This document shows positions 3,501 to 48,936 of a DNA stretch of 64,000 bases, piece after piece. A program made the position numbers and the translations under genes. How positions within the stretch are numbered: the stretch's first letter is position 1; each line of letters begins with the position of its first letter. Under the pieces are notes generated by a model that was not told the DNA's origin, ran no database searches, and was given only the letters and a program-made list of their open reading frames with translations. Source of the stretch: Eledone cirrhosa (taxonomy: Eukaryota); contig OZ024743.1 in NCBI GenBank assembly GCA_964016885.1, positions 150,040,001 to 150,104,000 on the forward strand. Direction: 5' to 3'.

Positions 3501-3645
3501 ATATATATGTGTGGAAATTGTATTTAATTTCTTGGAATTCTGACAAACATAAATGTTTATAACTGATTTAGAGCACTCAACAAGTTACTGGAGTAAATAT
3601 TCCATGATATTAAATAAATGGAAACTATATTTATAAAACCATATT

Positions 3646-3706
3646 TATTTTATTATATATATTTCAAGGGCAACCAAGCAAACCTTGGTGCGCTTTCATC
3701 AGATAA
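3646..3706 (-). ncRNA. Mirror copy of the hammerhead on the left arm (stem I only 4 bp)
   Basis: Exact reverse complement of 3802-3862. Confidence 0.7.
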
Positions 3707-3797
3707 CTTATCGGTCGTAAATTCACTGGACAGTGAATTCCCGACCGATAAGGTATGGTTTTTCATGGGTACGTCTTTATTTATAAAACAAACTTTG

Positions 3798-3862
3798 TAT
3801 TTTATCTGATGAAAGCGCACCAAGGTTTGCTTGGTTGCCCTTGAAATATATATAATAAAATA
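3798..3862 (+). ncRNA. Type I hammerhead ribozyme
   Basis: Stem I TATTTTAT(3798-3805)/ATAAAATA(3855-3862); CTGATGA 3806-3812; stem II AAGcGCACCAAG-gtttg-CTTGGtTGCcCTT; GAAA 3843-3846; palindromic stem III ATATATAT; predicted cleavage after AUA at 3854. Confidence 0.8.
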
Positions 3863-3905
3863 AATATGGTTTTATAAATATAGTTTCCATTTATTTAATA
3901 TCATG

Positions 3906-3938
<33 letters not shown>

Positions 3939-3941
3939 GGA

Positions 3942-4249
3942 GGAGGCACATGGCTTAGTGGTTAGAGCATTGGCCTTGCAATCGAAAAGTTGTGAGTTCA
4001 ATTCTCAGACCGGGTGATATGTTGTTTCCTTGAGCAAGACACTTTATTTCATATTGCCCCAGTTTACTCAGTTGTAGAAATGCAAAGTGGTCGTGGAGGT
4101 GCCACGGCAAAAAAAGCACCCAGCACTCACTGTAAATGAGGTTGGTGTTAGGAAGGGCATCCAGCTGTAGAAATCAAGCTAGGATCAGTTCCCGTCCCAC
4201 CCTTGCAAGCAGGGAAAAGCGGATGTAAAATGATGATGATGATGATGAT
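3942..4249 (+). mobile_element. tRNA-derived SINE family A with RTE-derived tail (internal deletion of ~38 bp)
   Basis: A box TGGCTTAGTGG, B box GTTCAATTC, CCTTGAGCAAGACACTT core, 3' end CCCACCCTTGCAAGCAGGGAAAAGCGGATGTAAAA(TGA)n. Confidence 0.9.
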
Positions 4250-4304: not shown

Positions 4305-4830
4305 TCATCATCATCATCATCATCATCACCGTTTTATGTCCGTTCTTCCATGCTAGCATGGGTTAGACGGGTTGTCCTGTTGTGGGCAGTGTCTGGTCGG
4401 CTGACCATGCCTTGCTCATACAGGAACTGTATGATTTCTACAGCTGGATGCCCTTCCTAACACCAACCTCATTTACAGTGAGTGCTGGGTGCTTTTTCGT
4501 GGCGCCTACACGTCCACTTTACAGTGTGGGTTGGGTGCTTTTTTGCCGTGGCACCTCCACGACGACCTTGCGGTGTGGGGTGTCGGGGCATATTGTCTCA
4601 GCTTCAGCTTGTACCCATGGGAGGTCGGGTACTCTGTATTACTGCGTGACGCCAGAAGTCACGGTCGTGTGTCATTGCCTTTGAGAGGTGTAATTGGGTA
4701 AGGTCGGCTTTTATCACCTCATCCCAGGTCATCTTGGGTCTCCCCACTCCGCGGTTTCCATCAACTTCTAGTGCTCTGCACCTTTTTTTTGCAGCTGTCA
4801 TCCTTCATACGCATCACATGTCCATACCAG
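4302..4830 (-). mobile_element. RTE 3' ORF fragment fused to a non-autonomous RTE-derived module with (ATG)n tail
   Basis: ORF 4604-4801 'KRCRALEVDGNRGVGRPKMTWDEVIKADL...DRDFWRHAV' is an RTE C-terminus; 4302-4600 carries the GGTTGGTGTTAGGAAGGGCATCCAGCTG module and an AACCCATGCTAGCATGGAA tail. Confidence 0.8.
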
Positions 4831-5064: not shown

Positions 5065-5455
5065 CCAGGCCGAAACAAATGAGATCGTGTAGGTGTCACG
5101 ACAAAAAAACACACAGTCCACGCTGTAATGTGGCCGTGTAGGCAACACGGTAAAAACCTCCCAGACCCACACTGTAAATGTGGTTGGTGTTAGGAAGGGC
5201 ATCCAACTGTAGAAAACCTGCCAGACAGTCCACGCTGTAATGTGGCCGTGTAGGCAACACGGTAAAAACCTCCCAGACCCACACTGTAAATGTGGTTGGT
5301 GTTAGGAAGGGCATCCAACTGTAGAAAACCTGCCAGACAGTCCTATGCGAGCAAGAAAATCACTCTTGCCTCAAGTGGGACTACCCTCGTCCAAACCCAT
5401 GCAAGCGTGGAACACGGACGTTAAACGTTGATGATGATGATGATGATGATAATGA
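5065..5455 (+). mobile_element. Non-autonomous RTE-derived element with a perfect 112-bp internal tandem duplication
   Basis: ~5113-5224 repeated at ~5225-5336; ends AACCCATGCAAGCGTGGAACACGGACGTTAAACG(TGA)n. Confidence 0.85.
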
Positions 5456-18494: not shown

Positions 18495-21011
18495 GCTTTC
18501 TTTATTAACCATAAGGGTTTACACAAAGTAGACAATTAAGGACAGTACAGGACAATACAGGACGGTACAAATGGGCATTTCTGCATGTAAAAAACAAAAA
18601 AAAAGAGGATGTAATAATAGAACAATGAAAACTTCCCCACTAGGGGGGAGACTTCCAAGGGCCATCGTGGAGAAAGCCCATTAAAAAAAAGCCACGGTGA
18701 CCCTGACCACCAGGGCAAATGTCCTCTCCCAGTTTTCCACCTTCAATTTACAGGCATATACTCAGAGTAGGTCCATTCACTCAGGCCATTCTTGCCTCTC
18801 TCACCCATCTTTCAACAAAAAGCTGGGAAGAGAGCACTTCCCTCCCTACCCTGATTTTCCTTTTCAAATGAAATTGGAAAAAGTTAATCAGGGCATCACC
18901 GAAGAGGTAAGTGCTTGTCTTCAGCCCTTTCAGATGCGTCCACCATACTATCTCTTTCGCGATGGCCACCAGACAGATAAAAACTGCCTGCCCTTCCCGG
19001 CTAAAGGAAGAGTTCTACATGCGACAGCAGGTGTTCGACATAAATCTACAAGTCAGCAATGCTCGGACACTGGACGAGTGCATGCAGGACGGTTTCGTCA
19101 CCCTGCGCGCATCTCGGACATGCCCAGCTGACAGCACCTCCATGCCTGTAGAGTTTATCCCGAACTGGCAAAGCTCCTCGGTAGCACTGCCAGGCCAGGG
19201 ATTTCTGGAAGTTGTCCATAAGCCCCGGCCCGAAAGTTCTTCCAAAGAGATTGGCTAGTTGATTTTCATCAACGCCTAGAGTTTCCCCAAGTACGTCGTC
19301 GCTCTTCCCTCCACTAATCCTCTAAAGAAAGCCAAGGTGGAGTTTCCACCGATCACATTGCCCGATTGGTCGAGGGCTGTGAGCACCTGAAGACATTCCA
19401 GTCTCCAAGCGCTCCCTCTCGGTCTTCGCTGGACCCAGGACTGCAGCTCCGTCAAGGAGATGAGCTAGGGAAAGACGCGTCTAGCAAACGGTGACCACAC
19501 CTGATCACTCTCGAGGAAGAGGTGGAGATTTCGTAGCCTGAGCGTATGTCTGCGCATCATTAGCCACGGCATGCCCAGCCCTCCACGTAGCGGGTGTTGA
19601 CAGCAGATGGACCGCCTGACCATCGGAGTGCGTCCCTTCCACAAAAAGCGAAAGAGCAAGTCAGGCGAGGCTTAGGACAAGGCACGACGGTCAGGCGGTA
19701 GTAGATGACGGACGCGATATACGCGTTAGCCACCTCCGCTCGACCTTTCAGGGATAGCTTCCTCTCCGCACATTTCTGGGTGAGAAAAGCCACCCTGCTG
19801 GTCACCTGGGTCCAGTTTTTGTCCATCTGGAGGTCTGGACCGAACCAGACCCCTAACAATTTAACTGGTCCATCCGTCCAGTGCCCGACGACGCCATTGG
19901 ACGGCATGGACCTGCCTCTCTAGGTGCCGAGCTGCAGGCCCACTGACTTTTCCTGGTTGATCATTGCTCCTGTCACCGCTTCGTATTCTCTTAGTGTAGT
20001 GCCGATCGCCTCAATGTGTTTGGTGTTTGACACCACTATGGTGACATCGTCCGCATATGCTGACACGGATCTTCTGCATCCTAGTTTGTGCGGGACCCCC
20101 TCAACGTCTCCAGTTTGTGCAGTAATGGCTCAACCGTCAATACGTACAAGAGGGATGAGAGGGGACATCCTTGGCGGACCGAGCGCATGATGTTGAACAG
20201 TTCCGAAAGGTGACCGTTCACTCTCACCACAGAGCAGATGTCGCTGTGCATGGCAGCGATCCAGCCTCTGAAGATGGGCCCAAAGCCAGCCGCCCTCAGG
20301 ACTGCCGCCAGATAACGATAGTCGACCCTATCGAAAGCTTTCGACTGATCTAAATTGATCAAGGACCCACCCGTGCCAGGTTCCCTAGCTACCTGTTCCA
20401 CGATGTATCGCATGAGGTGGAGGTTGTCGTGGATGGATCTGTTGAGAATGGCGCATGTCTGCGCCTCTCCCACCAGACCACCAACGACAAGCGCCAACCT
20501 CTTTGCTAGCACCTTGGCCAAAATCTTGAACTCTGTGTTTAGAAGCGTTATGGGCCTGAAATTATCTGTTATTCCCCTTGTTCAGATCTTTTTTCAGCAG
20601 CGCCACCGCTCCTCGGCTCAGAATTCTCCCGTTCTGTTGCCAGTTGCAATAGACGTCCGCCAAGAAGCCTCCAAACAAGTCTGGCATCTGTACGTAATGT
20701 TCATAGGGCAGACCATCCAAACCAGGCGATTTACCCCTTGTGCAGCCAGTCATTGCCTCCCATACTTCAGCTGCTGTTATCGGCTTTTCGCAACACTCTG
20801 CCCCAGTGGCCAAGAGCCGCGGCAGTCCGTCGAGGTAGACACTGAAGTCCATCCCTCGATCCGGCCCGCCACTGCCCCCGAACAGCTGAGCGAAGTGTCA
20901 CTGAAAAGCTTCACACATTTGCCCGGGATCGAGTAGCATGCGCCCGTCGTGGTCCACCAAAGACCGGATCGTGGCTTTGTTGCCACGACGCGCCTCCGCC
21001 ACTCGGGCCCA
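18495..21011 (-). mobile_element. 5'-truncated Tx1/L1-clade non-LTR retrotransposon (frameshifted ORF2: RT plus CCHC zinc knuckle)
   Basis: ORFs with KSPGLDGLP, LDQSKAFDRV, VRQGCPLS; AYADDVT at 20041-20060; CPRCAQGDETVLHALVQCP at ~19064-19120; AATAAA followed by (ATT)n tail at 18443-18494. Confidence 0.92.
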
Positions 21012-41479: not shown

Positions 41480-44400
41480 ATGACCATGCTGTAAAATGGA
41501 GGGGTAGAGAGGGCCCATGAGTCCAGTAAGACATCCTCTCTAGTGCTGGTGGCACAAATAAAAGCACCCAGTCCATGCTGTAAAGTGGCACTGGTGTTAG
41601 GAAGGGCATCCAACCAGTGTATCAATGCCAAAACAATTATGAGCGCAGCAACAAATATATAGGAACAACAAAAATATGAAGACGTCGCATCTCAGAGTTG
41701 CAACACTTAATGTTGGCATTCTCACAGGTAGCTCTGGTGAAATAGTTGAGATGCTGGAGAGAAGGCATATGGATGTGTGCTGCGTGCAAGTGGTGAGATG
41801 GAGAGGTGTCTCTGCGAGACTAGTTGCAGGCAAACATCTTAGCTATAAGCTTTTCTGAGTGGGTAAGGATGATGGGTTAGGGGGAGTAGGCATTTTCCTG
41901 GCTGATAGATGTATCAATAAGACAATAGAGGTAGTTCGAGTTAATAAGCAAATAATTAAGCTTAGATTAGTTGTAGGCAGGAGACTACTGACAATCATCT
42001 CTGCCTATGCTCTCCAAGCAGGCCTAGGCAAAGATGAGAAAGACTGCTTTTACGAGCAACTTTTACAAACAACCGCAATGACAGAGGATGGAGACATCGT
42101 TATGCTAGCAGGGGACTTCAATGGTCATGTTGGACAGCTCCAGGATGGTTACACTGGGGTACATGGTGGGCACGGTTACGGCTCAAGAAATGAAGGAGTG
42201 AGACTTCTTGAATTTTGTGATGCAGGTACACTGACTATTTGCAACACTAACTTCCAGAAACCTGCCAACCACCTGATAACCTACAAATCAGGCGAGCACG
42301 TAAGCCAGATTGACTTCTTACTAGTTAGGCAGCGGGACAGGCAGATGGTGTCAAATACCAAGGCATACCCTGGGGAAGAATGTACCCCATAGCATAGGTT
42401 AGTCGTTAGTGATATCTCAGTAAGCAAGAGATGGAATGAGACATACAGGAAGGTGTGGAGAAGAAAGGTCTGGAAGCTAAAAGACCTTTCACTAAAATAC
42501 AAATTTAGGAAAGCCCTTCAAGATGTGTATGACGAAAAAGAAGACGATTTAGAGTCGTATGACATAGATAACAACTGGAATTTTTTACGTGACAACTACT
42601 GCAGGCTACTGATGAAACTTGTGGCTGGAGCAGAGCTCCAACCAGACAGTGAGTGACCCGGTGGTGGAACAGCATAGTAGATAGGGCCATTAGAGACAAA
42701 AGACTAGCACGGAAGGCTTGGAAAAAGGGTGGGAGTAGAGAAGGATATACAGCCGCTAAGAGAGAAGCTAGACGTCAGGTGTACTTAGCACGCAGGGAGG
42801 CTGAAAGTAGGAGGTTTGCCAATGTTCTGAGACAGGAAGATCAGAGGTGTGCGGTGTTCCACATTGCAAGGCAGTGTGTCAATGCAAATCAGGATGTTGT
42901 TGGAGATAAATGTGTCCGGAATGATGCCGGTGTACTTAGTGTCACGAATGATCAGCAAAAGGAGGCCTGGAAATGTCATTATGAGAGACTGATGAATGTG
43001 GAGAACGAATGGGGGAGAGATAAATTACCCTCAGTAGATCCGACAGAGGGACCAGCTATTGAGATTGACGAATATAGGGTCCAAGAGTCAACTAAGGAAA
43101 TGAAAAATGGTAAGGCTGCTGGACCGTCGGGGATAGTTGCTGAGATGCTGAAGGCATCAGGGGACATAGGCACTAAACTGATTGCACGCATCATCAATCA
43201 GGCTATATATGGTGGTGTCATACCCAAAGACTGGTGCAGCAGTATTCTCATAAATTGCTACAAAGGTAAAGGGGATGCTCTGGAGAGGAGCAATTATAGG
43301 GATATAAAACTGATGGATCAGGTTATGAAAGTGGCAGAAAGGATATTAGCACAACTAATTAGAGAAAGGGTCAAACTAGATGAGATGCAGTTTGGTTTTG
43401 TGCCTGGGAAAAGTACAACAGATGCCCTCTTCTTGGTGAGACAATTACAAGAGAGGTTCTTAGAGAAGAATAAGCCACTATACCTAGCCTTTGTTGACCT
43501 AGAGAAGGCTTTTGATAGGGTACCCTGATCTGTCATCTGGTGGTCCCTAAGGAAACTAGGTGTTGAGGAATGGCTTGTGAGGACAGTGCAAACTTTGTAC
43601 AGAGGTGCTGTCAGTAAAGTCAAAGTAGGAATGGAGTTTAGTGAGGAATTCCAGATACAAGTAGGAGTACATCAAGGTTCGGTCCTCAGCCTGCTCTTGT
43701 TCATTATAGTCCTCCAAGCCATAACAGAGGAGTTTAAGACTTCTCTCTGCTGATGATCTGGTTCTTATAGCAGAATCAGTAGAGGAGCTATGGAAACAGC
43801 AGTTGGAAGCAAGAGGACTGAGAGTGAACCTAGCTAAGACAAAAGTGTTGATGAGTAGAAAAGAGGACAAAACTCTGATTCCGTCAGTTCGATATGCAGA
43901 AAAGGAACTGGCATAAATTCTATAAAATGCACACAATGCAGATCCTGGGTACACAAGAGATGTAGTGGGATAGCAGGCAAACTAACAGGTAGGGAGAAAT
44001 ACGTATGCAGTAGATGTACAGGGAAATTAGACAGTAGAAGTCGCATTGATAGACACATTTTTCAAATGCAGGCGGGTGCTATAGAAGTGGTGGATAGCTT
44101 CCGATACCTAGGAGATCAGATTAGCATGTTACAAGGCCATAGTATCTAGAATAAGGACGGGTTGGAAGAAGTTTAGGGAGCTTCTTCCTCTGCTGATGAA
44201 GAAGGGTTTCTCCCTGCGTACGAAATGCCGGTTATATGATGCCTGCGTGAGGAGCGCGATGCTGCATGGTAGTGAGACATGGGCAGCAACTGCAAAGGAT
44301 ATGCAACGGCTGGAGAGAAATGAGGCAAGCATGCTCCATTGGATGTGCAATGTGAATGTGTGTGAACGACCCAGCATGGATGTGTTGAGAGAGAAACTCT

Positions 44401-45087: not shown

Positions 45088-45424
45088 TGTATGTGCTACC
45101 TATGGTTTAAAAGTCCCTCGTCCATTATACAGTGGTAACCATGACTGGACCCCCAAAACCCTTGGTAGCACATACATGTTAAGTGTATGAAACTTTGTTT
45201 ACATTAAATAAGCTCTCTTCCAACAGATCAAGCACTATTTTCCTTGAACTTTCATTTACAAATTTCTACCAACGAATATATATATATATATATATGGAAA
45301 GTTATATTTAAATTGTTGTGTTACAACTAGTAAATATTTATAACTGATATAAAAGCACTCGACAAATATTTGGAGTATATTTACAATATTAAATAAATGG
45401 AAACTATATTTATAAAACCATATT

Positions 45425-45490
45425 TATTTCATTATATATATTTCAGGGATAACATATTAACAATATGCTATGCCTTCCTCAGACAAAATA
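45425..45490 (-). ncRNA. Mirror copy of the hammerhead on the left arm (complete)
   Basis: Exact reverse complement of 45626-45691. Confidence 0.8.
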
Positions 45491-45625
45491 CAATATAAGC
45501 AGTTTTATAGATAAATAGATTCGACATACCGTAACAACATCTACTTGCATTTGAGAAGGTTGATTGTTACGGTAGATGTTGTTACGGTATGTCGAATCTA
45601 TTTATCTATAAAACTGCTTATATTG

Positions 45626-45691
45626 TATTTTGTCTGAGGAAGGCATAGCATATTGTTAATATGTTATCCCTGAAATATATATAATGAAATA
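45626..45691 (+). ncRNA. Type I hammerhead ribozyme
   Basis: Stem I TATTTTGT/ATGAAATA (two G-U); CTGAGGA 45634-45640; stem II AGGcATAGCATATT-gtt-AATATGTTATcCCT; GAAA 45672-45675; stem III ATATATAT; cleavage predicted after 45683. Confidence 0.8.
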
Positions 45692-45728
45692 AATATGGTT
45701 TTATAAATATAGTTTCCATTTATTTAAT

Positions 45729-45775
<47 letters not shown>

Positions 45776-48542: not shown

Positions 48543-48850
48543 CATCATCATCATTTAATGTCTATTTCAAGCTAGCATGGGTTAGACGGATTGTCCTATT
48601 TGATGCAAGTTGGGTCAGATGACCATGTCTTGCTCATACAGAACTGTTTCTAGCTTGGTTTCTATGGCTGGATGCTCTTCCTAATGCCAGCCACATTTAC
48701 AGAGTGTGCTGGGTGGTTTTTGTTGTGAGACCTACACAAACACATTAAAGTGGGGGCTGGGTGCTTTTTGTCATGACACCTACACAACCACTTTACACTG
48801 TGGGTTGTGTGCTTTTTGTTGTGATACCAACACGTCCACTTTACAGTGTG
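48543..48850 (-). mobile_element. Non-autonomous RTE-derived element related to 4302-4600
   Basis: GCTAGCATGGGTTAGACGG...TGACCATG.CTTGCTCATACAG...GCTGGATGC.CTTCCTAA; tandem GTGCTTTTTG subrepeats. Confidence 0.75.
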
Positions 48851-48936
48851 GGAGAAAGCATAGGTGGCATGGGAGAAGGGTTCATTTATACAAAAATCAT
48901 TAGGTGCACCTTCAAATCTTTATTATTATTTTCCAT

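Follow-up and report, generated by a model that had tools for sequence, protein, structure and literature searches.

Head-to-head, hammerhead-bearing pLTR insertions of a Hydra-clade Penelope-like element in Eledone cirrhosa and their probable origin in two separately primed reverse transcription events

Penelope-like elements (PLEs) are the closest retrotransposon relatives of telomerase, and insertions such as the one described here bear on how inverted and tailed copies arise and on the role of the hammerheads that they carry. Several ingredients of this system are already published: the available text of the corresponding reports describes hammerheads in Penelope pLTRs, their opposite-strand pairs and covarying families (PMC4209133), a Hydra clade with an octopus member bearing a hammerhead (PMC8557442), and inverted pLTRs with one tail, target-site duplications (TSDs) and a TCACT Inr (PMC3846280). 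For an anole element, the accessible part of the report states that in vitro both strands are cut and extended and that two reverse transcriptase (RT) start sites bound the tail (PMC11167929). Whereas a hammerhead in a Penelope pLTR is thus already known, the population-scale clues to mechanism and the conserved C-C mismatch presented below seem new, in that a literature search with most subscription journals outside its scope returned no account of PLE dual priming or of such a mismatch.

The window, i.e. the whole stretch of 64,000 nucleotides of E. cirrhosa DNA that was analysed, contains the 163-bp perfect arms claimed by the original prediction as one perfect inverted repeat (45382-45544 and 45572-45734, 27-nt spacer; copy 2). 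The long arm (45295..45565, minus strand) is a pLTR copy terminating at the long, tailed end and is identical at 270 of 271 positions to the pLTRs of L032, L033, L034 and L173; its 87-nt tail (45295..45381, minus strand) is the one-sided extension noticed earlier and in full elements is found downstream of the short end and upstream of the ORF start codon. The short arm (45572..45734, plus strand) is a pLTR copy terminating at the short end without the tail, and a 6-nt junction insert (45566..45571, plus strand) separates the two. At this junction 45564-45574 is repeated at 45579-45589, and the sequence makes a templated two-step microhomology join likely. Each arm carries a minimal type I hammerhead motif, at 45418..45498 in the long arm (minus strand, predicted cut between 45433 and 45432) and at 45618..45698 in the short arm (plus strand, predicted cut after 45683). 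The insertion is flanked by a left (TA)9 run (45277..45294), which would hold the predicted 13-14-bp TSD, and by a right (TA)21 run (45733..45774); because the left run is pure TA, the duplication is uninformative at this copy. We identify the feature as a short, young, head-to-head fragment of a PLE pLTR.

The other copy in the window (copy 1, 3512..3906) has the same long-plus-short inverted architecture but is a member of a sister family (family B), and helix I of its left hammerhead is truncated. The similarity between the two copies was correctly noticed: the outer 63 bp of the copy 2 arm match copy 1 at 96.8%, and outer arm plus extension match it (3512-3669) at 82% over 161 bp. Copy 1's family has 375 candidates in the genome, and a long copy of it (L175) carries a frameshifted ORF that is 52-82% identical, by segment, to the protein of the full element described below. 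Since each copy matches hundreds of near-identical candidates, both are samples of two amplified families. What the earlier reading missed is that the sequence is the pLTR of an autonomous Hydra-clade PLE and that copies 1 and 2 represent two families. Other elements were also observed in the window, including LINE-like reading frames for endonuclease and RT, degenerate and some 1 kb to the left of copy 2 (41859-44300), which we take to be RTE-like, part of a further non-LTR reverse transcriptase where the GC content is higher (20081-20581, minus strand), and a SINE-like repeat whose head resembles a tRNA and which has tandem units of 48-49 bp (3938-4230, 4473-4579, 5113-5343 and 48691-48852), one copy of which adjoins copy 1.

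Searching the species' own genome (3.0 Gb) with one arm as query returned 545 candidates; 40 of them were scored and gave 44 matches at 99-100% identity, whose partner arms lay at distances of 0.1 to 7 kb, and 20 of these places were studied further. One locus (L031) holds a whole element with a unit length of 3,788 bp, made up of a pLTR, an intact 737-aa ORF, a 1.25-kb 3' UTR and a pLTR with tail, followed by an inverted 5'-truncated copy; three more full-length copies that were checked had broken or altered reading frames. Direct pLTRs from partial tandems, an inverted 5'-truncated copy and a tail at one end were seen in L031, L032, L137 and L173, and (TA)n targets flank the insertions. Neither a Pfam search with six ORF pieces nor PDB sequence searches returned a significant match, and the best named among 162 protein homologues was from Argonauta hians (38%). 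An AlphaFold model built on 75 homologue sequences (pLDDT 91) had telomerase RTs (TERT) as its top three Foldseek matches (E 1e-9), in keeping with a telomerase-like RT in a single ORF, with YRDD at 352, and its residues 613-715 matched the I-TevI GIY-YIG catalytic domain (Z 9.6, rmsd 2.2, 88 of 92 aligned), with Y617, Y630, G632, R641 and H645 invariant in the 75 homologues. The protein further shows the Hydra motifs DKT (118), the CxCX5C linker (CNCRDRSKC, 596), CxxC (CDLC, 694) and CxH (CKH, 721), as well as RWR at residue 37 where Hydra has RWK, a conservative variant. With its telomerase-like RT, GIY-YIG domain and pLTR arrangement the element is an EN+ PLE, and DKT, CxCX5C, CxxC and CxH together with the (TA)n targeting fit the Hydra clade; its unit exceeds the length typical of Hydra on account of the 1.25-kb 3' UTR. 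An asparagine-rich, low-confidence stretch lies between RT and linker (about residues 480-510; L031:2900-3250, minus strand) and recalls the N-rich inserts of rotifer Penelopes, as far as the available descriptions of these go.

In the short arm the hammerhead core CUGAGGA (45634-45640) is followed by helix II (45641-45671, with a C-C at 45644/45668), GAA (45672-45674) and a palindromic helix III, AUAUAUAU (45675-45682), helix I being formed by 45618-45633 with 45684-45698. Of the 31 pairs drawn, every one is standard when the sense strand is read (5 are G-U), as compared with 26 on the opposite strand, and the motif conforms to the minimal type I pattern, CUGANGA ... GAAA ... UH with helices I-III. 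A generic hammerhead scan found four motifs in the window, i.e. both arms of both copies, and none in 20 shuffles, so these motifs are not a product of chance. The Rfam scan of the window at gathering score gave no hammerhead matches, and the stability of the monomer fold is unremarkable (z -0.66), the hammerhead fold without helix III being 1.6 kcal/mol above the minimum (-12.8 vs -14.4 kcal/mol). The 8-bp helix III duplex is weak (-3.2) and the cleavage triplet is AUA. Dimeric PLE hammerheads were reportedly the subject of a 2017 paper. Each arm here carries a motif that is predicted to self-cleave as a dimer, and the changes seen in helix III, which remain self-complementary even at the two innermost bases, fit the dimer model in the accessible text of PMC4209133.

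The pattern of core plus helix III occurs 30,091 times in the genome (2 in the control), and 14,233 times when the 3' strand of helix I is added (0 in the control). As had been stated, helix II opens with A-U in both copies, has G-C against A-U at pair 2 and keeps C-C at pair 4, and the core change is N7 U to G. Helix II does differ between the copies while pairing in both, but it was not swapped wholesale because graded intermediates exist, with G-C, G-U or A-U at pair 2, A-U or G-C at pair 5, and U-A or C-G at pair 6. Against the proposed G-U compatibility of stem I, the outer part of helix I breaks in copy 1's family. Once genomic copies had been collected and their helices compared, covariation was evident in two sets: in 30 variants from 78 distinct arms, eight of the nine helix II pairs change on both sides (none of 500 shuffles), and in 18 hand-picked sequences that include more distant families 94.7% of cells pair, with 13 of 19 pairs changing on both sides and at most 54% pairing in slid controls; these shuffles and slides treat sequences as unrelated, and core and helix III are preset by the search pattern in most rows. 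Selection on RNA structure, as originally proposed, is supported by this covariation. Position 4 of helix II is unpaired in all 18 sequences (16 C-C, 2 C-U) and is C-C in 27,345 of the 30,091 genomic matches, C-G (159) and G-C (220) being rare; the 100 listed of each are scattered over subfamilies and look like later point mutations or register shifts. We conclude that the ribozyme motif is genuine and conserved, and that the family carrying it is new, abundant and part of a known clade. Among 200 listed matches, five pairs of arms in short insertions have rare helix II variants in common (G000:C1:75454789/75455006; C2:158565710/158565883; C2:220860274/220860464; C3:364747994/364748058; C11:25015735/25015946), by way of either a variant template RNA or occasional conversion between arms. 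Further hammerhead-bearing repeat families were noticed in the flanks of eleven loci (L008, L046, L048, L085, L125, L130, L134, L149, L154, L157 and L164), some with a 6- or 9-nt helix III and no C-C, and the total hammerhead count of the genome is well above 30,000.

Conservation of the fold might also mean that the element's protein uses the structure as a signal for binding or folding, with little or no cleavage. Arms show no excess of ends at the predicted cut (304 vs 458 matches at the next base), in a test that is weak, the next-base control being inflated by a G-variant lineage and 12-nt deletions; among inspected matches true junctions were 5 of 44 at the cut and 1-2 of 32 at the next base. 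As arms do not pile up at the cut, most templates were uncleaved, and full elements were copied straight through the site. These results, together with the AUA triplet and weak helix III and with the reported need of the anole element's ribozyme for protein and its dispensability in vitro (PMC11167929, as far as its available text goes), speak for a binding signal. On the other side, helix III when changed stays a self-complementary 8-mer, as a dimeric ribozyme requires, and two single cases hint at cleavage in vivo. In one (L238:1372-1836), a 285-nt direct repeat within a (TA)n run, roughly the first 100 nt of the ORF are joined to the base that follows the predicted cut, twice and with one base of ambiguity; the only two genome-wide matches of this junction fall at this same locus, so that it is not a family, and the repeat resembles the product of rolling or end-to-end copying with a cleaved RNA fragment as template. 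In the other (L281, G000:C2:353433450-353434150), which was chosen after the list had been seen, a perfect palindrome has both arms starting at the predicted cut base. We regard the binding signal as unlikely. With mostly uncleaved RNA as the template, the ribozyme likely has its role in RNA processing or in copy control, and not in integration.

With regard to the inversion itself, all arms terminate at either of two fixed positions, which are separated by 87 nt; in the whole element (L031) these are the short end, 136 nt upstream of the ATG, and the long end, 47 nt upstream of it. The 74 distinct head-to-head pairs with both motifs comprise 69 long+short, no short+short, two long+long and three unclassifiable; the two are scored as long+long solely on account of an inner arm that extends into the ORF, their outer end being short. 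The directly classifiable pairs are long+short without exception (69 of 69). Outside this count, one locus (L180) has head-to-head short+short arms only 88% identical, and is possibly two insertions or an exception to the one-tail rule. Mirror target duplications of 13-14 bp were found in 8 of the 27 informative pairs, i.e. those having a non-TA base among 57 with scorable flanks, where shuffling predicts 1.2 (maximum 7), and were absent in the remaining 19. Our preferred reading, which we consider probable and which the in vitro findings on the anole element (PMC11167929) also favour, is a head-to-head, hammerhead-bearing Hydra-clade pLTR insertion made by two separately primed RT events at a staggered (TA)n cut. 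The endonuclease would nick both strands of the (TA)n run about 14 nt apart, and the element's RNA would be copied from either 3' end as primer, synthesis of one cDNA starting at the long site and that of the other at the short site, 87 nt further upstream. Both cDNAs would extend toward the RNA 5' end; in the window copy they would have reached, or nearly reached, an Inr-like start site some 90 nt upstream of the core. The two ends would then be joined by microhomology. The mechanism resembles L1 twin priming, except that here the arms may overlap. Additional inversions were observed inside three insertions (L050:3449-3886, L171 and L189), which amounts to several template jumps at the junction instead of one.

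The presumed start site corresponds to a conserved TCACT-like motif 81-93 nt upstream of the core, about 9 nt beyond the end of the window long arm. In an analysis of the first matches along C1, in which 69 of 94 arms were mapped and 25 could not be assigned, 13 of the 55 arms reaching the motif stop within 7 nt of it, as compared with 9 of 42 in the next 100 nt. We read the motif as marking the RNA 5' end, a rival interpretation being that arms stop there at an RT stall site. In four elements copying went on past a full unit, by 266 to 1,251 nt, which implies tandem or circular templates.

The same element could alternatively have been inverted by fold-back, the first cDNA or an antisense template priming on itself, as proposed for rotifer Penelopes in the part of PMC3846280 available. 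Perfect or near-perfect palindromic junctions (L113, L138, L199 and L281) and lineage variants common to both arms (window copy and L034) would suit such self-priming. Fold-back nevertheless demands that the copied arm lie inside the template arm, and neither arm contains the other in L039, L043, L036, L038 and others. Either arm may be the longer, with the untailed arm longer in many insertions; six insertions (L141, L157, L052, L058, L174 and L178), with a tail-only arm, have at most 3 nt in common with their partner and cannot be produced in this way. Nor does fold-back by itself account for the constant combination of a long with a short end (69 of 69 pairs). Together, the one-tail rule and the six non-overlapping insertions favour two independently primed cDNAs; fold-back is strongly disfavoured for the non-overlapping class, and we hold it to be improbable overall. 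Of the earlier proposal that fold-back points should differ from copy to copy, the variable spacers stand, while fold-back itself is probably the wrong picture. That inversions form anew at each insertion is upheld by spacers ranging from tens of bases to about 7 kb. The homogenisation of arms once offered in its place is not needed: the window copy is symmetrical because it is young, arms are identical in 24 of 47 pairs, and older pairs have up to 18 changes in about 125 nt.

A non-autonomous retrozyme family replicating as small circular RNA would match the type I hammerhead, the high copy number and the derivation of retrozymes from PLE pLTRs reported in the available part of bioRxiv 2026.07.22.740005, but no head-to-tail hammerhead arrays were present among the loci examined and the short copies are truncations of ORF-bearing elements at 99.6% identity; with arms head-to-head and drawn from such elements, a non-LTR retrozyme was rejected as very improbable. 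Finally, the long perfect arms and TA flanks could suggest a palindromic repeat kept uniform by homogenisation, or a DNA transposon with terminal inverted repeats such as a MITE, but this reading is refuted, and in our judgement next to impossible, given arm and spacer lengths that vary from tens of bases to kilobases instead of being constant (as the original prediction had anticipated), asymmetric ends, an RT as coding partner and the divergence of older arms.

A more ambitious combination, to which we give tentative credence somewhat short of belief, would bring together double target-primed RT, with both nicked strands priming, one at either end of the tail, and the cDNAs fused, a distinct hammerhead subtype in which the invariant C-C at position 4 of helix II takes the place of loop 2 in a tertiary or protein contact, and cutting in vivo that occasionally gives rise to small RNA circles, reverse-transcribed round and round, as in L238. 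Whatever its fate, a very large family, recently active and with its ORF intact, offers natural integration products by the tens of thousands. What can be read from them, namely the strict rule of one tail per insertion, the stagger of 13-14 bp, the candidate start site and the conserved mismatch in helix II, lends itself directly to testing in the in vitro assay already published.

As described in the available text of PMC8557442, the Hydra clade, including Hydra-1_Obim from Octopus bimaculoides, likewise has a single ORF with RT and C-terminal GIY-YIG domains, DKT, CxCX5C, CxxC and CxH, together with (TA)n targets, a canonical hammerhead near the 3' end and inverted truncated copies. It differs in having RWK and a length generally below 3 kb (typical rather than strict), against RWR and 3.8 kb here; Hydra-1_Obim is listed there without pLTRs, which are clear in E. 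cirrhosa, and its hammerhead, compared by eye with what is available of it, differs from the one described here with its 31-nt helix II, C-C at pair 4, AUAUAUAU as helix III and AUA. About 30,000 motif copies further set the present family apart. The Penelope pLTR hammerheads of PMC4209133, in the portion accessible, have in common with ours the palindromic helix III, the long helix II, many covarying families per genome and opposite-strand pairs 100-700 bp apart; position 10.1-11.1, usually G-C there, is A-U, G-U or A-C here, helix I is longer here (8 bp, a bulge and up to 7 more), and the pyrimidine mismatch at helix II pair 4, invariant here, goes without mention in that portion. The Penelopes of Adineta vaga (PMC3846280, available part) also show head-to-head inverted pLTRs, a tail on one of them and an Inr-like TCACT in the pLTR, with TSDs of 8-10 bp rather than 13-14 bp; their inversions were explained by self-priming, whereas the copies studied here favour two independently primed cDNAs. 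A parallel to the two fixed ends is PAc, a Poseidon element of Anolis carolinensis, whose tail, according to the text available of PMC11167929, is also bounded by two fixed ends corresponding to two RT start sites, and which also has AT-rich targets and uncleaved RNA as main template. PAc belongs to a different clade and its tail lies inside the ORF, whereas the 87-nt tail of the E. cirrhosa element lies upstream of the ATG and the evidence gathered here is genomic rather than biochemical.
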